From: an uncultured Planctomycetia bacterium
Lineage (GTDB): Bacteria; Omnitrophota; Gorgyraeia; Gorgyraeales; Gorgyraeaceae
Assembly (NCBI GenBank): GCA_964415355.1
Contig: CAYPYS010000002.1
Location: 8,048-72,047, forward strand
DNA length: 64,000 bases
Direction of reading: 5' to 3'
Part shown: positions 46,152 through 59,277 of the stretch, in pieces
Layout of the letters: each line of letters opens with the position of its first letter
Position numbering within the stretch: the stretch's first letter is position 1
Notes under the pieces: generated by a model
What the model saw: the letters and a program-made list of their open reading frames with translations, nothing else
Told to the model about the DNA's origin: nothing
Databases searched by the model: none
Translations under genes and position numbers: made by a program

Positions 46152-46469
46152 ATGGGCGTTATAAAAGGAGCCTTGAAAGAAGAGCTTGAAAATTCTCTGC
46201 GCATGAAGAAGGAATATGAAAAGGCCTTAAAGGAGCTTCCGGATGGATGCTTGGCCGAAAAGAAGATACGCGGCCATAAATATTATTATTTAGTCAAAAG
46301 GTTCCATAAGAAGGTCAAATATATCTATAAAGGTAAGCTTTTAAAGGAAGAGGTCGCTAAATACAACGACGCTAAGATCCTAAGGGCTAAATACAGAAAA
46401 TTGCTGTCGCAGGTTAAAAAGCAGATAAGGTTTTTAAGGAGTAGTCTACGTGGAAAAGAATCAATATAA
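46152..46469 (+). CDS. small basic hypothetical protein (candidate regulator/antitoxin of the downstream nucleotidyltransferase)
   Basis: overlaps downstream gene by 20 nt; strongly regulated promoter. Confidence 0.35.
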   Translation: MGVIKGALKEELENSLRMKKEYEKALKELPDGCLAEKKIRGHKYYYLVKRFHKKVKYIYKGKLLKEEVAKYNDAKILRAKYRKLLSQVKKQIRFLRSSLRGKESI

Positions 46470-47124
46470 ACTATGCCTCGAGGTCCTCAAGCGGTTTAAT
46501 AAAGCAGGTATTCTGGACGGATTCATTTTGATAGGCAGCTGGTGCCTGTATTTTTACAAGGCCTATTTCAAGAAAACCCCATATATAGATGTTTCTACGC
46601 TTAGAACCAGGGATATAGATTTTTTAATACCTATTCCGCCAAAGATTAGGAAAAGCGTTGATGTGCCAGAGCTACTCAAGGATCTTGGATTTGTGACGGA
46701 TTTTAAAGGAAGCAGAGGCTACATAAAGCTCGATCACCCTGACCTTATATTGGAATTTTTAGTACCGGAAAAAGGCAGAGGGGATGACAGGCCTTACAGG
46801 TTGCCACAATTAGGTATGAACGCTACGTCATTAAGGTTTCTAAGTTTTTTAATGGATAACGTTATCCGAATCAAGGTAGAAGATTTTTATATCAATGTAC
46901 CGCATCCCGCGAATTTCGCATTGCATAAACTTATTATTTTTCAGAGGAGAACAAAGGAGTATAAGGTTTTAAAAGATAAAAATACAGCTATTGGAGTTCT
47001 AAGGGCATTGCTCGATAAAGGCGAAGGCCATATAATCAAAAAGACACTGGGATCTGTTCCTCAGAAGTGGAAGAAAAAGATTATCAAAGGATTGGAGGGA
47101 GAGAAAGCGCTTCATATTTTCTAA
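46450..47124 (+). CDS. nucleotidyltransferase-fold protein (AbiEii/MNT-like GS...RxxDIDF motif)
   Basis: LIGSW...TLRTRDIDFLIP. Confidence 0.4.
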   Translation: MEKNQYKLCLEVLKRFNKAGILDGFILIGSWCLYFYKAYFKKTPYIDVSTLRTRDIDFLIPIPPKIRKSVDVPELLKDLGFVTDFKGSRGYIKLDHPDLILEFLVPEKGRGDDRPYRLPQLGMNATSLRFLSFLMDNVIRIKVEDFYINVPHPANFALHKLIIFQRRTKEYKVLKDKNTAIGVLRALLDKGEGHIIKKTLGSVPQKWKKKIIKGLEGEKALHIF

Positions 47125-48881: not shown

Positions 48882-49422
48882 CAAACGAAGATCAGCTAGG
48901 GGTATCATGAATAAGAAAGGAAATAGCTCTATTATGTTTATATCTACGGTTATCATGGGAATATTGGCTGTGGTGTTGTTATTAGTAGCTTATTATAAAG
49001 GCGTGCATATGACAGGGCTGAATCAGGCCATGCGCATGACCATGCAGATATTGCCTTTGCTTATCTTTGCCTTTATAGTGGCAGGCATGGCGCAGGCGCT
49101 TTTGCCTCACGAGACCATATCCAGATGGATAGGTGAGGAGTCAGGTATGAAGGGCGTATTGATCGGGACAGTGGCCGGGGCAATGACACCTGGCGGGCCG
49201 TATTTGAGTTTACCGATAGTCGCGGGGCTTTTGAAGTCCGGCGCGAGCATAGGCGTGATGGTGGCGTATATTGCCGGCTGGAGTCTTTTGAATATCAGCA
49301 GATTGCCTATGGAGATAGGTATACTCGGGTGGAGATTTACTTTGGTGAGATTTTTGAGCGTTTTAATACTTCCGCCCATAGCCGGGGCCTTCGCGCATTA
49401 TATCAGCAAGGTTTTGAGATAG
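48868..49422 (+). CDS. DUF318-type permease subunit (half-size membrane permease)
   Basis: multi-TM; TPGGPY motif. Confidence 0.45.
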   Translation: MNKNNKRRSARGIMNKKGNSSIMFISTVIMGILAVVLLLVAYYKGVHMTGLNQAMRMTMQILPLLIFAFIVAGMAQALLPHETISRWIGEESGMKGVLIGTVAGAMTPGGPYLSLPIVAGLLKSGASIGVMVAYIAGWSLLNISRLPMEIGILGWRFTLVRFLSVLILPPIAGAFAHYISKVLR

Positions 49423-49916
49423 ACAGATCGTCATTGCGAGATCAATTGCATTGATCCTGCCAGAGTAACTAATAAAGCAAAAGATTAGTATATAGGGGGA
49501 GATTAAGGTTTGCGTAGAGGGTTTTAGCCATATAAACTTGGTTTCTTTATGATTAAGCCTAACCGCCTATAATGTATCTTATGTTAACTTGGTTATATGA
49601 GAAGAAAAGCCATAAGTCTATATGGCTCAATGAGTTGCGTATTTTTGTTAATTGTCTGTGAATAACTCTTTTTCTTCTTTGGTTGGTATATTGCTTGTCA
49701 TTCCCGCTTACACGGGAATCTTAATAGGTAGGTTATTATTACGCGTGTTTTGGCTTATTATAGCCCTTTATAGACCAGATTATTACTAGGTATAGCCTAA
49801 TTACTGCTTCTCCCCCGCTTGTCATCCTCGCGAAAGCGGGGATCCATTAGAAGCTATATTTTTACCCCTTATAAACCCATCGACCCCTAAAAACCAGTAG
49901 TCGATATAAACCTATA

Positions 49917-50453
49917 TTAATCTAATATCAGACGAAATGATTTTGTTCTCTCAAAAACAGTATTCCTTAGCTCCCTATGAACTCTTTGCAAAATTGGCAA
50001 TAGTCTAATTCTTCTAAAGTTATCCCAATCGTCAAATGTTCGATAATCATTATTAAAAACCATATTGTTTAATTCAGATTGCAATTGGGCGATTAAATCT
50101 ACTATCTCTGTACCATAATACAATCCCATCAGACCAAGCTGTAAATAGCTTTCTCTCGTAGCTCTATTAAAATTATCCAAAGAGACTTGTCTTCTTTGGA
50201 TAATTTCAGGATTATTGTTAGTTATGCTACCCTGTTGTATCTGTAGATTAATATTGGCAAGTTCCCACATCGAAATCAACATGAGACACAGACTATTCAA
50301 AATGTTTGTAGCTGTGTTATCCTTAGCAATAAGGTATTTAGTCTTTATGTCTCTTTCAAAGTGAAATTTGGCAATTTGTATAGTAGTGTAAGCAACAATA
50401 ATAGGCGATATAAGGCCGAATACTATTGTTTTAATAATTGCATCGGAAAACAT
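49917..50453 (-). CDS. hypothetical protein with N-terminal TM helix
   Basis: no recognisable motifs. Confidence 0.35.
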   Translation of the reverse strand: MFSDAIIKTIVFGLISPIIVAYTTIQIAKFHFERDIKTKYLIAKDNTATNILNSLCLMLISMWELANINLQIQQGSITNNNPEIIQRRQVSLDNFNRATRESYLQLGLMGLYYGTEIVDLIAQLQSELNNMVFNNDYRTFDDWDNFRRIRLLPILQRVHRELRNTVFERTKSFRLILD

Positions 50454-50571
50454 AATATCCCTACCAATCCTTTTTTAAATACTTATAGTGTTTGTAATAC
50501 TACCTAACAACCCCGCCCCTATCAACCTCTTCCTTGCTGTAAGCTGTGCTAAAATAAGACACTGCTATCGA

Positions 50572-51420
50572 TCACGCTTTAATATTACTGACCTCCCGAA
50601 CAAGTCTAATCCCAGTATACATTCTATCTAAGAATTGTCTTTCTAGTTTCATTTTCTCATACCTATTCCTTGGATGATGGGAAAGATTACGTACTCCTTT
50701 GTAAGATATTAAATCATTGCATAGCGTAACATCAAAATACTTCTTTTGCTTCTTTCGAGCACCGCCTTTATTCCTCCAATTAGGAGCCGATAACAGCTTA
50801 ATTTTTGTTTCAAAATTGTAATTTTGCACCTCTCCAATTGTCGGCACTATTTTTTTTGCCCTTGCCGCTGCTTCCGCTAATGTATCCACTAATCCTTCTA
50901 TTAGCTCAGTTATATCTCTAATCGCATCGATAAAGTTACCTTCGTTGAATTTTTCGCAAATCTTAACAATGTCTTTCCTGTATCTGCCCGGACGATGCAT
51001 CTCTGCTTCTCCGATTCTCATATTGCATTGCACGGCATTGCGATGCACGATAACGTTATTATCACACACCAATAAGATGCCTAAGCCATATTTCTTGGCT
51101 AACGTTAAAAAGCTATGAGAAAAAGAAGTTTCCTTATCATCTGTAGAATGAGGAAAGGCCAAAAATATTTCAATTCTTTCTTGGTTGATCAAGCATTCCT
51201 TAACAAAAGTCTCAAAATATTCTTGTAATTGTGGTTTTTCTTGTATTTCTATAACTAATACTGCTGAGCCGCGTTTATGACACACTAACGCTGGTTTGAA
51301 TTGATATTGGGGAGCAAGTGGTTTTTCGAATGAAATTCTTCTATAGGTTTTCTTTTCATAATATTTAATGAGCGTCTTAGCAATAGACCAAAGATTCTCG
51401 CTTAAAAATTGAAATTTCAT
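50572..51420 (-). CDS. hypothetical protein (unknown; co-operonic with ParB-like gene)
   Basis: 3-nt gap to upstream gene. Confidence 0.4.
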   Translation of the reverse strand: MKFQFLSENLWSIAKTLIKYYEKKTYRRISFEKPLAPQYQFKPALVCHKRGSAVLVIEIQEKPQLQEYFETFVKECLINQERIEIFLAFPHSTDDKETSFSHSFLTLAKKYGLGILLVCDNNVIVHRNAVQCNMRIGEAEMHRPGRYRKDIVKICEKFNEGNFIDAIRDITELIEGLVDTLAEAAARAKKIVPTIGEVQNYNFETKIKLLSAPNWRNKGGARKKQKKYFDVTLCNDLISYKGVRNLSHHPRNRYEKMKLERQFLDRMYTGIRLVREVSNIKA

Positions 51421-51422
51421 AA

Positions 51423-52364
51423 TTAAATAATTTTAGTTATAATCTTATATAATTCTTTCAGCTTATTTGCAACTTCTTTGTCTTCTTTGATCTTGCTGTC
51501 CATCCTTTTTAATTTATTAACTAGAGACTCTATTTCTTTTTTTAAATTCCTTTCTTGGTAAGCATCGGCGACAGATTCATTGTAAGCATCTTCTATCCTA
51601 TATTTTGGATTGTTTATTAACTTTTTAATTATAGGGATTGCTTTTTTACTTGGAACGCCTGCTTTCTCAGAACGAGCTATTTTGCTAACATCTCTTAATT
51701 TAACAATGTTAGATATTACACCATCTTTATACTTTTTAAAAAATCTTTGCATTATTTTTTCTTTAGAGTTACTTTCTAAAACTTCGGGCATATATCTTTC
51801 TATTGCCCTGCTTGCTTTCATGGCCTCCAAAAAGAAATCCTCCGAAAATTTTTGTTCTGCCTTGGGTTTTGAAAGCTCTTTTCTTAATAGATTTAAATAT
51901 TTCGTGGGCAAACTTAGTATATCAAAAGCTCTTTTTGCAGTTGCGGGAGTAATGCCTGTTACCGCTGTTATGTCTTTCAAAGAATAAGGCTTATTTTCTT
52001 TTTTTAATAAATTCTCTATTTCTTTAAGTTTCAGTGCTGTTGCAAACAAGTCCCATTGAACACGAACATTATGTATATTGAACATTCTTAAAATATTCTC
52101 TAGCCTAGTTGGCCTTGGTTCAATTATGGTAGGAACGCGAGATAAATTTAACTTCTTAGCACACAACCAGCGCCTTTCCCCATCAAGTAATATATACCTA
52201 TTACTTTTAACATCTTCATAAATAGCTAAAGGAACTCTAATGCCTACTTTTTGTATAGAATTTAATAGGACTTGGAGCTCTTCTTCTCTAAAAATTATAC
52301 GTGGATTATCTGGATTTCTCTTGATTTTGTCTGGATTAATATTGGCTAATCTGGTTCCTGACAT
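51423..52364 (-). CDS. ParB/Srx-fold (ParB-like nuclease domain) protein
   Basis: NPDNPR...LLNSIQKVG...RYILLDGERRWLCAKKL...VP ParB N-terminal signature. Confidence 0.6.
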   Translation of the reverse strand: MSGTRLANINPDKIKRNPDNPRIIFREEELQVLLNSIQKVGIRVPLAIYEDVKSNRYILLDGERRWLCAKKLNLSRVPTIIEPRPTRLENILRMFNIHNVRVQWDLFATALKLKEIENLLKKENKPYSLKDITAVTGITPATAKRAFDILSLPTKYLNLLRKELSKPKAEQKFSEDFFLEAMKASRAIERYMPEVLESNSKEKIMQRFFKKYKDGVISNIVKLRDVSKIARSEKAGVPSKKAIPIIKKLINNPKYRIEDAYNESVADAYQERNLKKEIESLVNKLKRMDSKIKEDKEVANKLKELYKIITKII

Positions 52365-52384
52365 AACCTGTCTCCTTATTTAAT

Positions 52385-53191
52385 TTAAAAATTTGTTATT
52401 ACTAATTCTGGGACTTTTTTTCTCTTCTTTACATTCCCTGCTATCAAGCTTCTTCTTTTAACAAGAGTTAAATTGAAATTCTTATACAACCTTCTTATAT
52501 AATCGTGCTCTGCATTGCTCATGATAATCTTGCATCCTTTTTTATCAAGCTCAACAACAGCATCTTTTAAGCGATTTTGATCTTTTAATGAAAATATTCT
52601 CGAATTATATTCTATAAAACCATTATTTTTATGTGAAGTAGTATAGGGAGGGTCTAAATAAATTAAATCACCTTCCGTAGTATCTTTTACTGCTTTTTCA
52701 AAATCAAGACCTCTTATAGTTACATTTTTTAATATCTTACTAACATTTTTTAATTTCTCTTCGTCGCAAATCGTCGGATTATCATATCGGCCTATAGGAA
52801 CATTAAATCTACCTTTGGGATTAACTCTATACAAACCGTTCCAGCATGTTTTATTAAGGTAGATAAATCGGGCAGCCCTTCTTAAATTATTTGACAATCT
52901 CTGTGAACGAATGTTGTAATAGTATTTCTTCTGGTAGGGCATATTTTTTAAAAATTTTATAACTCCGCCAACATTTCTTTTTATTTGTTGATAGCTATTT
53001 ATTAATTCTGAATTTAAGTCTGATAAATATGCTTCTTTAGGTTCTAATGCAAAAAACAAAGCACCACTACCCAAAAAGGGCTCAAAATAGCGGTTGTAAT
53101 TTTTTGGAATAATTTTTAGTAGTTCAGGTAATAGAGCTTTTTTGCCACCTGCCCATTTCAAAAAAGGCCTAGTAGTAACTTTTTTACTCAT
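52385..53191 (-). CDS. Dam-family (alpha-class) N6-adenine DNA methyltransferase
   Basis: FLKWAGGKK...EPFLGSGA motif I; DPPY motif IV. Confidence 0.85.
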   Translation of the reverse strand: MSKKVTTRPFLKWAGGKKALLPELLKIIPKNYNRYFEPFLGSGALFFALEPKEAYLSDLNSELINSYQQIKRNVGGVIKFLKNMPYQKKYYYNIRSQRLSNNLRRAARFIYLNKTCWNGLYRVNPKGRFNVPIGRYDNPTICDEEKLKNVSKILKNVTIRGLDFEKAVKDTTEGDLIYLDPPYTTSHKNNGFIEYNSRIFSLKDQNRLKDAVVELDKKGCKIIMSNAEHDYIRRLYKNFNLTLVKRRSLIAGNVKKRKKVPELVITNF

Positions 53192-53242
53192 TTTTGTTTT
53201 TTTAGTCTATTTTTAAAATAAATAGAGCTATGGTTCCGTCTG

Positions 53243-53878
53243 TTAAGGCTCTACTCCTAAAATTAACAAAGGTACTGGTGGGTTATTACGGCCATGACGT
53301 AGAATATTGTATACTTCTCCTTCATAATAAGCTACGCCACTTGACATCTGAGACTGCATTTTCTTTGTTGGTAGGATTTCAACACCAAGATTTATGACCC
53401 CGCCAGAATAAAAAAGCAAGTGCTTAACAAATAAGTCAAAAGCAACAAAGGCATATTTGCCAAACTGTACTTCTACGGCAACTTGTTTTTTTACAAAATC
53501 AGTTTGCTTATATGATGCAATTGGGTGCTTAGTACCGTTTTTAATCAGAAATTCTTTCTGTTTTTTGTAAGATAAAGGAACTAATTCTTGCATTATTTTA
53601 TAATCGGTTGTTACATAGTACTGATAGCGACTTTCTTTCCACCCATGAGTTCTAAATTTATTCCTGAATTTTTCATTAAGCGCTATAGGGCTATATAGAG
53701 GCTTGCCTTTCATGGTTTTCTCTTTGCTGATCTTTGTCATTAGCTTTTTAGCGTCTATGCTGTTTATGGTTTTGATAATCTCATTATACAAACTCTTGTG
53801 ATGGACTATTAAATACTCTTCTCCGTTTAGGTGGGAATGTTTCTGTGCTATACGCATACATAGGCTCCTTTCATCCAC
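53243..53878 (-). CDS. putative type II restriction endonuclease (BglII/BamHI-like arrangement EVQFGK..LGVEILP)
   Basis: position between two MTases; E-x-Q / hydrophobic pattern similar to the BamHI E111-E113 region. Confidence 0.4.
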   Translation of the reverse strand: MDERSLCMRIAQKHSHLNGEEYLIVHHKSLYNEIIKTINSIDAKKLMTKISKEKTMKGKPLYSPIALNEKFRNKFRTHGWKESRYQYYVTTDYKIMQELVPLSYKKQKEFLIKNGTKHPIASYKQTDFVKKQVAVEVQFGKYAFVAFDLFVKHLLFYSGGVINLGVEILPTKKMQSQMSSGVAYYEGEVYNILRHGRNNPPVPLLILGVEP

Positions 53879-54852
53879 TCTTTAGGAATTCTGGCCATTT
53901 TGTCATTAGGAGAAGGATTGTGTATGGGTTTATTGATAGGCCGAAGCTTTAGTTTATTGTTTTTTAACATTAATAAGCGTTTTTTGGCGGTTTCTATATA
54001 TTTTTTGTTGCTGTCTATTCCTATAGCATTTCTGTTGTTTTTCATAGCTGCGATTAATGTCGAGCCAACACCTGCATATGGATCTAATACCCAGCTGCCT
54101 TCTTTTGTTAAAGCGAGGATGCACCGTTCTACAAGTTCGACAGGAAATTGACAAGGATGAGTAGTTTTTTCAGGATGGTTTGCTTTAACATTTGGTATGT
54201 TCCAAAAGCCTTTTTCCCAATCTTTGCTTAAAATCTCCCATACATCAGAAGGATTTTTTCCATTAGGATTTCCAGAAAGCTTTCCTCTCTTGGGGCCCTT
54301 GAAATGTTTTTTTCCAGGATATTTTGCAGGTATACGTACATTATCTAAATTGAAAATATAGTCATTTGATTTAGAAAACCATAGGATTGTTTCGTACCTG
54401 CCTGAGAATCTCTTGGATGCATGTAGTCCGTGCCCAAAATGCCAAATTAATCTATTTCTAAGTTTTAAGCCGTGTTTTTTAAATATATTATAATAAAAAA
54501 TATCAAGTGGGAATATCTCTCCTTTATTAACGTAATTGCCTATTTGCCAACAAATACTGCCTCTTTTAGACGTTAACTTAACAAGCTGCTCGATGACTCT
54601 ACCTTGTTTATCTAAATACCGCTCTATTGATTCTTTATTTTCGTATTCCTTCCCTAGGTTATAAGGGGGAGAAGTAATTATTAGATCGAATTTTCCTTTA
54701 TCTAGTTTCTCTAAATTTCTGAGAGTGTCTCCTAGTATAAGCTTGGTCTCTGTATTTTTATACATATTGTTTATTTTAGTTAAATTAGAGCTCGCCATTT
54801 TCTTGGATTCTCCTGCTGAAGCTTGCCCAAAAAGATCATTAATTAATGTCAT
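53848..54852 (-). CDS. beta-class N6-adenine/N4-cytosine DNA methyltransferase
   Basis: SPPY motif IV near N-terminus; DPYAGVGST motif I near C-terminus; start set at second Met after AGGAGG. Confidence 0.75.
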   Translation of the reverse strand: MTLINDLFGQASAGESKKMASSNLTKINNMYKNTETKLILGDTLRNLEKLDKGKFDLIITSPPYNLGKEYENKESIERYLDKQGRVIEQLVKLTSKRGSICWQIGNYVNKGEIFPLDIFYYNIFKKHGLKLRNRLIWHFGHGLHASKRFSGRYETILWFSKSNDYIFNLDNVRIPAKYPGKKHFKGPKRGKLSGNPNGKNPSDVWEILSKDWEKGFWNIPNVKANHPEKTTHPCQFPVELVERCILALTKEGSWVLDPYAGVGSTLIAAMKNNRNAIGIDSNKKYIETAKKRLLMLKNNKLKLRPINKPIHNPSPNDKMARIPKEWMKGAYVCV

Positions 54853-55410: not shown

Positions 55411-55614
55411 TTTTTTAACGTCCGGGATTTACCCCTTCTTAACTCGGGACTTTATTTGATTATACTTATATTTTACATGCCAGGGGTGGGTTTGTCAAGG
55501 ATTTGCACTCTCGTTAACTCATTTGCAAATCACTTTTTAACCCCGTCTGCCCTCGCCTACCCTTTTCTCTCTATCTAAGACACTGCATCATCGAAGCCTT
55601 AAAGCTTTTCCTCG

Positions 55615-55661
55615 CCCTGTAGTGTTTCGGAGGTCTCTCACGCCTCCGAAACACTACAGGG
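55615..55661. repeat. perfect 19-bp-stem hairpin (ccctgtagtgtttcggagg-N9-cctccgaaacactacaggg), no T-run
   Basis: read directly. Confidence 0.6.
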
Positions 55662-55797
55662 CTCCCAAACCCAAAACACCTAAATGAGATCGCTTCGTCG
55701 CCTACGGCTCCTCGCAATGACGTTCTTCTCGACTCGCTTCGCTCGCTCGAAGAATATTACCTTTCTCTACTACCCCCCCCTATCTCTTCCCCTCCTA

Positions 55798-57042: not shown

Positions 57043-59277
57043 TTATTTGGCATATAAATGTTTTCTAACCAGGTCAAAATCATCTAATGCATCATGCGGC
57101 ATTGCAGCGCCATATCTTTCTATAATAGCTATATACTCCTCCCTTGTATCTCCTTGGACATTATCAGCTATTATAAAAACCGTTCTTTCAGGGATTTCAA
57201 TGCGTTTTCTTATTTCATCTTCTTGAGTCTTGAAATATACAATAATGACCGGAACTTCGTGCGGAGAAATATTACTAATTCCATGTCTAATTTTTTCTAA
57301 TCCAGCTTCATCCGCTAATATGTTACCTTCAAATAAGCTTGCTCCATTAAATAAGACAGGAGTTGCTTCTATTAAAGAAGAAGCGTGTTTATCATATTGC
57401 AGCTCAATATCCTTTTGAACAAAAGCAAGAACCATGGCAGCAATAAGCATTGGCGTGACTTCTTCTTTCGCTACAAGTTCTTGCATTAAAGGCAATTCAG
57501 ATGGACTAAGACCGATATCGTTAAGAACCTCTTGCGGTAATTCAGATAGGTCTAAATCAAAACCTGCAAAGTCTGCTGGTGAAAATTCAAATAAGTTTAG
57601 ACCAAAGCCAGCCCTGTACGCATGCCCTCCGCCCCATCTTCCTTTAGGTCCATTTATACATAAGAAGCTGACATCGATTTCATCAAAATCAGATCTCCGC
57701 GCCAAAAGTACAGCCATGCTATTATCTTCTGCTATATAATAATGTACCAATACTCTGTTGCCAAACTGACCATTATCATTAAGAAGGCCGAATACTATCT
57801 TGTGCACGAGAAGGGTAACGTTACCTTTTTCTGCCGGAATTTTATAAAAATAAACCTTCCTGTTAGAAGCAAGGAATTCTTTTATAGAGCCATCAACCTC
57901 GTTCATGATACCTCTGGACCACTCAAAGAAATCATCTCCGAATCTCCTCTGCATCGTTTCTTCAAGCCCTCTCCTTAAATCTTCAAAGGAACCGCTAGAA
58001 GAGATAACCTGAATGATTTCTTTCATTGCTCCGCGCCTTTTCGCGAGTTCTTCCGGTTTCCAATTAAATAAATAAGTCCCGCATAGATTAAGTAGCCCTG
58101 AAACATGCCTAGCTTCTTCTGAATCAAGATCTTTGTTTAGACTTGGGAAATTTGAAGAAGAATAATCGGCGTAAAGAGACAGTTGTTTTAAGAAATGATA
58201 CCAAGGATCACCTTCTGTCTTCATCAGGTCTGCTTCAAATGCACCTGAAGCATAGCTATCAGGATCCGCTACTTCTCCGATAATAAGGTGGACATTTATA
58301 AGAAATATTTTATCTCTTTCGTATTTATCAATACAATTGTTAAATGTTCCGATGTTATTAGCAGCTATAAACTCCTTGCTCCATTTATGGTGATCCTGCA
58401 CAATGATAGTATCGAAACCAAAAGAATCGCTTAAACTGCCTCTTTTATATCTATCAGGCTCGGGAAGAAAAACATCCCCTACAAAAAGAGCCCTTTTACC
58501 CTTTAATTCTGAAAAATCAATCATCCTTTCATCTTCTTTATAGTGTGACAAAGGCAAAAGACATATATAAAGCTTCCCGTCGTGCCTCGCATCATTAGGG
58601 TCAGTGATGAATTCTACGTCTCTACCTTTGCCTCCTGCTTCATGAACCAGTCTGCGGTATACTGCTGCAGAAAAAGTAAAAGAATCTCCATCTATCGGTA
58701 TTTTTTGATTGTCATGGGGCGATATAACGACAATAGAATACTCATCAATAATTTTCTCTATCAAGTTGTCCAATAGCTGCTTTATCTTATTAAGATTACT
58801 AGCTTTATTTTCCCATTCATGCGCCAGATACTCTTCTGTTTCTATGACACCCTTGTCCCTATTCTGAATCCTGCGAAACTCACTTTCTTCTTTAGGCCAA
58901 AATAATCCATCTTTATATATTGCATAAGTATTTGTTTCAGCGTGATGTATCCAGGCATTTCCATGGACATCCTCTATCACTTGAAGATCTTCATCTTCTA
59001 TAAACTTAGATAACTCAGGGTCTTTTCTTAAACTTTCAAGAAACTGCTGAGGCGAAATGTTTGTTTTATTCTTCAGTATTTTTTGATAAGCGGCTGATAG
59101 TGATGCCCAGAAATATCTAGAGATTGTATTGCTATCACTATTATTAAAATCAAGCTCTTTTCTAAGATGGGTTTTATTGGATAACTCTATACCATAGACT
59201 GCAGCGTTAAAGAAAAGTACTCCAGCTGCAATTATTGATATAATTTTATAAGTTAAGGGTTTACTAAAGTTTTTCAT
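57043..59277 (-). CDS. large exported/membrane-anchored DHH-DHHA1 family phosphoesterase with about 250-aa N-terminal extension
   Basis: DGD, DHH (IVQDHHKW) and GGGH (GRWGGGHAYRAG) motifs; N-terminal TM/signal. Confidence 0.5.
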   Translation of the reverse strand: MKNFSKPLTYKIISIIAAGVLFFNAAVYGIELSNKTHLRKELDFNNSDSNTISRYFWASLSAAYQKILKNKTNISPQQFLESLRKDPELSKFIEDEDLQVIEDVHGNAWIHHAETNTYAIYKDGLFWPKEESEFRRIQNRDKGVIETEEYLAHEWENKASNLNKIKQLLDNLIEKIIDEYSIVVISPHDNQKIPIDGDSFTFSAAVYRRLVHEAGGKGRDVEFITDPNDARHDGKLYICLLPLSHYKEDERMIDFSELKGKRALFVGDVFLPEPDRYKRGSLSDSFGFDTIIVQDHHKWSKEFIAANNIGTFNNCIDKYERDKIFLINVHLIIGEVADPDSYASGAFEADLMKTEGDPWYHFLKQLSLYADYSSSNFPSLNKDLDSEEARHVSGLLNLCGTYLFNWKPEELAKRRGAMKEIIQVISSSGSFEDLRRGLEETMQRRFGDDFFEWSRGIMNEVDGSIKEFLASNRKVYFYKIPAEKGNVTLLVHKIVFGLLNDNGQFGNRVLVHYYIAEDNSMAVLLARRSDFDEIDVSFLCINGPKGRWGGGHAYRAGFGLNLFEFSPADFAGFDLDLSELPQEVLNDIGLSPSELPLMQELVAKEEVTPMLIAAMVLAFVQKDIELQYDKHASSLIEATPVLFNGASLFEGNILADEAGLEKIRHGISNISPHEVPVIIVYFKTQEDEIRKRIEIPERTVFIIADNVQGDTREEYIAIIERYGAAMPHDALDDFDLVRKHLYAK

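Follow-up and report, generated by a model that had tools for sequence, protein, structure and literature searches.

The 64,000-nucleotide stretch of contig CAYPYS010000002.1 analysed here (the window) carries on its minus strand a block of about 5 kb with a guanine-plus-cytosine (GC) content of 31–35%, compared with about 42% in the flanks. We take this block, with reasonable rather than firm confidence, to be a small defence islet that contains two independent methylation-based systems, together with a small gene that is unrelated to them. System 1 is a restriction-modification (R-M) pair, made up of a beta-class DNA methyltransferase (MTase) and an endonuclease. System 2 consists of a Dam-family MTase, a ParB-like protein and a 282-residue protein, here named X, and is probably a methylation-guided immune cassette lying next to an ordinary R-M pair. 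The elements of the two systems are the following:

53848–54852, minus strand: beta-class N6_N4 DNA MTase, first gene of system 1 (334 residues, SPPY motif; PF01555, E 1.8e-54).
53243–53857, minus strand: BstYI-like type II endonuclease, second gene of system 1 (204 residues counted from Met8; PF09195, E 4.8e-25).
53192–53242, no strand: 51-nucleotide spacer at the boundary between the R-M pair and Dam-ParB-X, placed from the gene coordinates and from the occurrence of the cassette elsewhere without system 1.
52385–53191, minus strand: Dam-family (D12, alpha-class, DPPY motif) N6-adenine MTase, first gene of system 2 (PF02086, E 9e-60; TIGR00571, 275 bits).
51423–52364, minus strand: ParB-like protein, second gene of system 2 (ParB_N, 313 residues; PF02195, E 2.5e-15).
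50572–51420, minus strand: protein X, third gene of system 2 and predicted effector nuclease (282 residues; amino-terminal domain with PD-(D/E)xK fold, carboxy-terminal HEPN domain).

The genes of system 2 recur together elsewhere. Six close cluster representatives of X are present among 5.8 billion sequences, and in all six the gene immediately before X encodes a ParB_N protein (about 313 residues), with a D12 MTase ahead of ParB wherever the contig reaches far enough. The genes flanking these close loci vary (pP_pnuc_1, AIPR, NT5C), and no BstYI-like gene is found in their flanks. By profile search, family X grows to 196 representatives (at 50% identity), almost all with a length of 270–290 residues. 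The ParB partner family is larger, with 721 clusters at E ≤ 1e-10, for which Omnitrophota, Planctomycetes, Verrucomicrobiae and Thermoplasmata are named as sources; among the top 120, 118 have 310–320 residues, with 45–65% identity across 89% or more of the query. A survey of 94 ParB-anchored loci (13 from genomes, 80 from metagenomes and the full-length viral locus L108), annotated with hidden Markov models built in this analysis, is conditional on ParB similarity and includes some duplicates; in this set, X is located directly downstream of ParB in 72 of 85 evaluable loci and a Dam-like D12 MTase directly upstream in 64 of 87, and the gene junctions often measure −3 to +4 nucleotides. A BstYI-like enzyme occurs at none of the 94 loci outside the window's own organism. 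When the similarity matrices of 30 non-redundant complete triplets are compared, the correlation is 0.93 for ParB and X and 0.58 for both MTase-ParB and MTase-X (Mantel p = 0.001), part of this signal being shared phylogeny; X is the fastest-evolving of the three. The near-perfect co-evolution of ParB and X suggests that the two proteins form a physical complex.

A preliminary description of this DNA had listed six minus-strand open reading frames (ORFs) in the block, and all of them are present where it placed them, with the SPPY, DPPY and E-x-Q motifs that it had named; the E-V-Q of the endonuclease is aligned with the E-V-Q of BstYI. The beta-class MTase starts at the ATG at position 54852, with an AGGAGG ribosome-binding site in front of it, and the start of the endonuclease was set at Met8, where BstYI begins in the alignment. 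In gene order, the intergenic distances are −10 (an overlap), 51, 20, 2 and 118 nucleotides. The gaps between the first five genes had been given as 20 nucleotides or less, which is correct for the distances of −10, 20 and 2 nucleotides but not for that between the endonuclease and Dam genes; the 51 nucleotides found there are the largest gap among these five genes and are located at the boundary between systems 1 and 2. No terminator-like site is found between the six genes in a scan of the window, and the only terminator-like hairpins on the minus strand are those 5′ of the first gene (55065–55032) and 3′ of the last (49628–49607); the promoter and terminator scans both gave numbers at chance level.

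The order of the first three genes had led to the proposal of an MTase-endonuclease-MTase arrangement resembling MboI/DpnII-type systems, with the Dam-like enzyme as second MTase. In its full form, this makes the block a single composite operon, in which both MTases serve the endonuclease at GATC and ParB, X and the 178-residue product of the sixth gene are accessories. The shared orientation of the six genes, the short distances between them and the lack of a terminator-like site inside the block agree with such an operon, GATC is plausibly central to both systems, and some RGATCY enzymes of the BglII/BstYI family are blocked by Dam-type N6-methyladenine (m6A) (PMC10287943, PMC10734518). However, the endonuclease belongs to the BstYI and not to the DpnII/MboI family, BstYI-type pairs of MTase and endonuclease exist as two-gene units, the Dam-like MTase is tied to ParB-X in dozens of loci that lack a BstYI-like enzyme, the widest gap within the first five genes separates the endonuclease from Dam, and homologues of the 178-residue protein never adjoin either system. 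Conversely, the pair of beta-class MTase and endonuclease occurs without a Dam-like MTase. Comparative genomics thus largely refutes the composite operon, which we consider very unlikely; on the loci compared, the Dam-like MTase is the conserved first gene of the Dam-ParB-X cassette and stands apart from system 1.

That a genuine type II R-M system is present, formed by the beta-class MTase and a BstYI homologue, had been recognized correctly, as had the BglII-like character of the endonuclease from its E-x-Q motif. The endonuclease scores 88.6 bits with Endonuc-BglII (PF09195), for which the cutoff is 26; this is its sole Pfam match, and none is obtained to the DpnII family. It can be aligned end to end with BstYI (PDB entry 1sdo) over residues 8–211 (E 2.3e-69), with the catalytic D...E-x-Q kept (TDFVK...VEVQF aligned to TDFVK...IEVQF of BstYI), and BglII itself is a distant relative (E 0.07). 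The proposed MboI/DpnII likeness therefore has to be replaced by that of a close BstYI homologue, partnered with one beta-class MTase. In PADLOC, a check that had been suggested earlier, both MTases and the endonuclease match generic R-M models (MTase_II for the beta-class MTase, E 4.8e-75; REase_II for the endonuclease, E 8.7e-74); the other three genes are treated below. An overlapping two-gene unit on the Sphingobium plasmid NZ_CP046255 encodes relatives of both enzymes, the MTase with 52% and the endonuclease with 53.5% identity to those of the window, and no other methylase belongs to it. This indicates that genes 1 and 2 are a complete type II R-M system and, as far as homology tells, a self-sufficient pair of an already known kind.

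The predicted recognition sequence of the endonuclease is probably RGATCY, and an SPPY motif in an MTase favours N4-cytosine methylation. The window contains 86 RGATCY sites, with about 71–91 expected, and the observed-to-expected ratio of GATC is 1.04; neither is depleted, which is uninformative, and with 86 such sites protection is needed if the endonuclease is active. RGATCY enzymes of the BglII/BstYI family differ in their sensitivity to m6A in GATC: BstYI is insensitive, while MflI, R.Nph3I and the enzyme of A. baumannii A118 are blocked (PMC10734518, PMC10287943). Given these differences, a functional cross-protection by the Dam-like MTase is conceivable.

The composition of system 2 varies in related lineages. 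In a Dehalococcoidales locus (L025) the order is ParB-X-Dam, and a divergent D12 MTase is present in a Thermoplasmata locus (L018) and in viral contig L108. In an uncultured bacterium (L024, 6262–7068) and in a metagenome-assembled genome of Bathyarchaeia (L026, 8936–9751), the MTase is of the beta class and a PRTase-CE protein (PF24390, E 1e-33 to 1e-35) stands where X would be, an arrangement that is an effector-swapped cassette. Effector and MTase are thus both exchanged. A DNA MTase that is obligatory yet interchangeable follows R-M logic, with a self mark that makes the partner proteins tolerable. In Microbacterium, Gaiella, Rathayibacter, Lysinimonas, Agrococcus and Rhodoglobus (L017, L019–L023), Dam and ParB are followed by a conserved 236-residue protein with an AGAGLL strand motif and a helical carboxy-terminus, which contains no Rx4H motif; cultured Actinomycetota among the carriers are Microbacterium, Agrococcus (such as A. 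lahaulensis DSM 17612), Rathayibacter (such as R. rubneri) and Lysinimonas. This protein was considered as a divergent X, but the hhalign probability is 6.6%, confined to the GxG strand region, and homology is therefore not claimed.

The second protein of the cassette is a genuine ParB/Srx-fold protein, as had been described. Its predicted structure (mean local confidence score, pLDDT, of 89) is made up of an amino-terminal ParB/Srx nucleotide-binding domain, a central KorB/ParB-like helix-turn-helix (HTH) and a carboxy-terminal helical region. Box I is kept as NPDNPR (NPxNPR) and the DGERRW of box II is invariant, so that the GERR arginine box and the subsequent HTH are present as in canonical ParB; box III reads NIHNVR with an invariant histidine, where ParB has ENxQR with a glutamate. 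The best alignment is to CTP-bound (cytidine triphosphate-bound) Caulobacter ParB (E 4e-11). Matches of the predicted structure include KorB, the amino-terminal domain of pNOB8 ParB, sulfiredoxin, PadC, Spo0J and the DNA-binding domains of KorB and ParB, and no informative structural match was obtained for the carboxy-terminal region. PHROG ParB families match weakly. By experiment, the ParB/Srx fold binds CTP, ATP or GTP, with a specificity that is unpredictable from sequence (2025 survey, PMC12704722).

The AlphaFold model of X (pLDDT 86) contains two domains. The amino-terminal domain (about residues 1–135) has a predicted PD-(D/E)xK core fold, with alpha-beta-beta-beta-alpha-beta topology, and resembles NucS/EndoMS and SfsA. 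The carboxy-terminal domain (about residues 145–282) is a helical-bundle HEPN domain with an Rx4H motif (R244-N245-x3-H249) and Glu175. Conservation was assessed over 79 members, down to about 16% identity: Gly114, Glu175, Arg244 and His249 are invariant, and Asn245 is kept in 77. In the nuclease-fold site, position 58 is acidic in all 79 members and Glu32 is present in 72. No match to X was obtained in Pfam, NCBIfam, PADLOC, PHROGs or the PDB sequences, and none of the 79 members has a significant match in Pfam, including its curated HEPN models; the best sub-significant matches are to DUF4145 (6 members, E 4e-4), HepT-like_2 and Abi_2.

From these features we infer a defence role, with methylation as the self mark, nucleotide switching by the ParB-like protein and nucleic acids as the substrates of X. 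Host DNA would be marked by the Dam-like MTase, with GATC-type sites as the most likely targets. The ParB-like protein would bind DNA via its HTH, and its ParB/Srx domain, binding CTP or another nucleoside triphosphate (NTP), would act in the manner of a switch or clamp to engage DNA that lacks the mark. Once engaged on DNA, it would recruit or activate its tightly co-evolving partner X, of which the HEPN RNase site (Rx4H) would cleave RNA and the nuclease-fold domain might bind or cut DNA; degradation of nucleic acid by X would then stop the invader or the infected cell, as restriction or as an abortive response. Stated in full, this would be R-M-like immunity in which unmethylated DNA is sensed by a ParB-type CTP/NTP-gated clamp in place of a nuclease or helicase, and the clamp, once loaded, licenses a dual PD-(D/E)xK/HEPN effector, interchangeable with PRTase-CE in archaea. 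We put this full version forward tentatively, as a possibility short of a probable one.

Several observations weigh against an immune cassette of this kind, in addition to the ParB-dependent choice of loci and the shared phylogeny mentioned above. No PADLOC-DB v2 model matches ParB, X or the 178-residue protein at E ≤ 0.1. The position of the beta-2 aspartate in X is occupied by threonine or serine (residue 44) in 71 of the 79 members and no conserved lysine follows Glu58; since a canonical PD-(D/E)xK triad is lacking, DNA cleavage by X, and with it the catalytic competence of the nuclease-fold domain, is uncertain. The histidine that replaces glutamate in box III means that NTP hydrolysis by the ParB-like protein may differ from that of ParB. 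Co-transcription of all six genes is possible, because there is no internal terminator-like site, and the Dam-like MTase might in addition protect DNA against system 1. Many flanks of the cassette contain housekeeping genes. Defence or mobile genes are found in some flanks (AbiEii, WYL, MmeI-like, AIPR, PD-T4-6, type IIG and type IV R-M, PglW, parts of MADS, SoFic and resolvases), and the enrichment in defence-island genes, given without a background comparison, is only modest.

A HEPN toxin also fits a selfish addiction module of toxin-antitoxin (TA) type, in which X would be checked by ParB, by methylation or by both, and would kill cells that lose the cassette, with no dedicated anti-phage role. 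A two-gene TA system has no need of a conserved, class-swappable DNA MTase, though, an HTH combined with an NTP-binding box is an atypical antitoxin architecture, and none of 72,556 plasmids, on which addiction modules flourish, carries the cassette. We judge this explanation to be rather improbable; addiction and defence are not mutually exclusive.

The fold of the amino-terminal domain of X, like that of NucS/EndoMS and SfsA, and the likeness of the ParB-like protein to KorB, a CTP-dependent repressor clamp, are compatible with methyl-directed maintenance, repair or regulation: a NucS/MutH-like nuclease guided by Dam marks and a ParB clamp, or a KorB-like repressor with an epigenetic MTase. 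Dam guides strand choice during mismatch repair in E. coli, and the housekeeping genes in many flanks would suit such a role. On the other hand, the invariant residues of X are located in the HEPN RNase site and not in the nuclease-fold domain, a conflict effector (PRTase-CE) takes the place of X, as is typical of immune systems, X evolves fastest of the cassette components, and the phyletic spread is patchy and includes sharing between bacteria and archaea at 47–48% identity. The chance that the cassette serves maintenance is accordingly slight. Conservation of the ParB-like and downstream genes as housekeeping genes in relatives lacking the R-M genes had earlier been named as evidence that would speak against a defence role. 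ParB and X are indeed conserved where the R-M genes are lacking, but as a patchy, mobile, MTase-linked cassette that is not housekeeping-like, and this outcome therefore supports defence. The earlier suggestion that ParB and its 282-residue partner add a defence-like activity outside the R-M system holds, in the form of a conserved cassette of their own with the Dam-like MTase.

Phages commonly carry ParB-MTase fusions and loci that pair ParB with a terminase (PMC4738411, PMC12704722), the full cassette (divergent D12 MTase-ParB-X) is present on one contig of the IMG/VR viral collection (L108, 1–3100; UViG_2585427803_000009), at the contig edge, and the weak PHROG matches of ParB point in the same direction. 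The cassette could then be a phage- or plasmid-derived ParB-methylase module for anti-restriction, packaging or partition, preserved here as a prophage remnant. Against this, L108 is the only one of 33 viral-contig matches to be full length, tblastn searches of 50,697 phage genomes and of the 72,556 plasmids with X and ParB were negative, and neither in the window nor at the loci examined does the cassette have a terminase, ParA or other phage gene as a neighbour. No cassette locus among the 94 has a ParA gene beside it; the sole ParA neighbour belongs to a weak match (L027, 36% over 73 residues), which is a true chromosomal ParB of Pelagibacteraceae. An origin of this kind is the least probable of the explanations considered, and we retain the immune cassette.

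The remaining elements of the block are one gene and one hairpin:

49917–50453, minus strand: 178-residue protein with an amino-terminal hydrophobic segment, neighbouring cargo (no family matches; 17 homologue clusters).
49607–49628, minus strand: terminator-like hairpin 3′ of the last gene of the block (consensus scan, in which the site count is at chance level).

The 178-residue protein has no match in Pfam, NCBIfam, PADLOC, PHROGs or the PDB sequences. Its homologues, in 17 clusters, are encoded in RHS/YD-repeat arrays, in an islet with a recombinase and within a glycosyltransferase cluster, and at none of their loci is an MTase-ParB-X cassette or an R-M system adjacent. The protein, which had been proposed as a member of the module, is best regarded as neighbouring cargo unrelated to either system. 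Two homologues (L146, 4096–4650, and L147, 2001–2555) have RHS/YD-repeat toxin genes on either side, as is typical of immunity genes or of orphan genes in such cassettes.

About 3 kb from the island, on the plus strand (46152–47124), a 105-residue ORF overlaps the gene of a 224-residue NTP_transf_8 nucleotidyltransferase (PF12281, E 8.5e-23); these two genes may be a TA-like pair, which would add a defence or mobile flavour to the neighbourhood. On the other side, a 744-residue ORF (57043–59277, minus strand) adjoins genes for PEGA-domain and transglutaminase-core proteins and has no Pfam match at E ≤ 0.01. Non-coding REP-like short palindromic repeats (of the GCTTGTCAT...CGGGAATC type, and CTCGCAATGACG) and a perfect 20-nucleotide hairpin are located on both sides of the island, at 49425–49440, 49693–49720, 49817–49844, 55614–55662 and 55711–55726. 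A repeat search revealed no convincing direct repeats bracketing the island, and Rfam gave only a sub-threshold chance match, to the hairpin at 55613–55662. At about 49400–50000 the gene orientation changes from plus to minus and the cumulative GC skew has its maximum, so the island is situated at a switch of convergent transcription and skew polarity, possibly a terminus-like region. Among metagenome contigs of the same organism (L010, L014, L149–L157), ten include the PEGA gene that flanks the island; six of these terminate right at its boundary, and four others (L010, L014, L149, L152) are broken within the ParB gene. These ends point to differences between strains at the island or to faulty assembly there. 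A search for an island-free strain variant via the flanking PEGA gene gave none; the contigs carry the island or stop at its edge.

The R-M pair is routine, and the value of the locus is in the compact, widespread and mechanistically distinctive three-gene module adjacent to it. This module is spread over hundreds of protein clusters in Omnitrophota, Planctomycetota, Verrucomicrobiota, Chloroflexota, Actinomycetota and archaea (Thermoplasmata, Bathyarchaeia), and is absent from model organisms, from the plasmid and phage collections, from PADLOC and, for X, from Pfam. If it is an immune system, it would extend the CTPase-switch paradigm of ParB, known from partition, Noc and KorB, to the discrimination of self and non-self, and would be the first immune role of the canonical partition-type ParB fold; plain Dam methylation, or epigenetic self-marking, would be coupled in a new way to a HEPN RNase or abortive response. 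The cassette is also small enough to be synthesized as a system for studying the activation of an RNase by a clamp loaded on DNA, and its separation from system 1 is an example of adjacent R-M-like systems being merged wrongly from sequence alone.

When compared with known systems, system 1 is similar to the BstYI system of Geobacillus stearothermophilus Y406 (BglII/BstYI family), with the endonuclease aligned over its full length, the D...E-x-Q conserved and, as in BstYI-family pairs, an adjacent, overlapping beta-class MTase; it differs in adjoining a second, unrelated system. The ParB-like protein shares with the CTP-dependent clamps ParB, KorB and Noc the amino-terminal fold, boxes I and II, the HTH that follows and a similar size, but it has no ParA partner and no known parS site, for which no search was made, its box III is altered and it is encoded inside an operon with an MTase and a HEPN protein. 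GmrSD, SspE, DndB and DpdB likewise combine a ParB/Srx nucleotide-binding domain with a nuclease or effector in a modification-reading system, and for DUF262 ParB-fold proteins both HEPN and PD-(D/E)xK partners are known (PMC3632139, PMC12839542). These proteins are of the DUF262 (DGQHR) type, are usually fused to a nuclease and deal with other modifications. In the cassette, the ParB-like protein has a partition-type GERR box in a DGERRW motif and a KorB/ParB HTH, its best matches are ParB, Noc and KorB and its sole Pfam match is ParB_N, it carries no fused nuclease domain, the effector is a separate polypeptide and the predicted modification is plain m6A, made by the cassette's own Dam-family enzyme.

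HEPN proteins embedded in R-M systems (DUF4145-endonuclease fusions, RloC/PrrC, AbiD/F) have been proposed as second-line or suicide effectors (PMC3710099). X resembles them in its combination of a HEPN RNase domain with a restriction-endonuclease-fold domain and in its link to a DNA methylase; its domain order and its uncurated family are distinct, and its obligatory partner is of ParB type and is neither an ABC ATPase nor an R-M complex of type I or III. In the literature searched, the only mention of a ParB, HEPN and MTase combination is one line of Table 1 in Anantharaman et al. 2013, for the HEPN family MAE_28990, given without architecture, mechanism or experiment; the cassette itself is described or tested nowhere in that literature. 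MAE_28990 shares with X the neighbourhood of HEPN, ParB-fold protein and DNA methylase and an Rx4-6H motif, and both are assigned to conflict systems; the likeness is one of described neighbourhood and motif, and X is a possible member of that family. Taken with these comparisons, system 2 would be an immune or conflict system linked to methylation, in which the pair of sensor and effector is unusual, and for which the 2013 family is a partial precedent.

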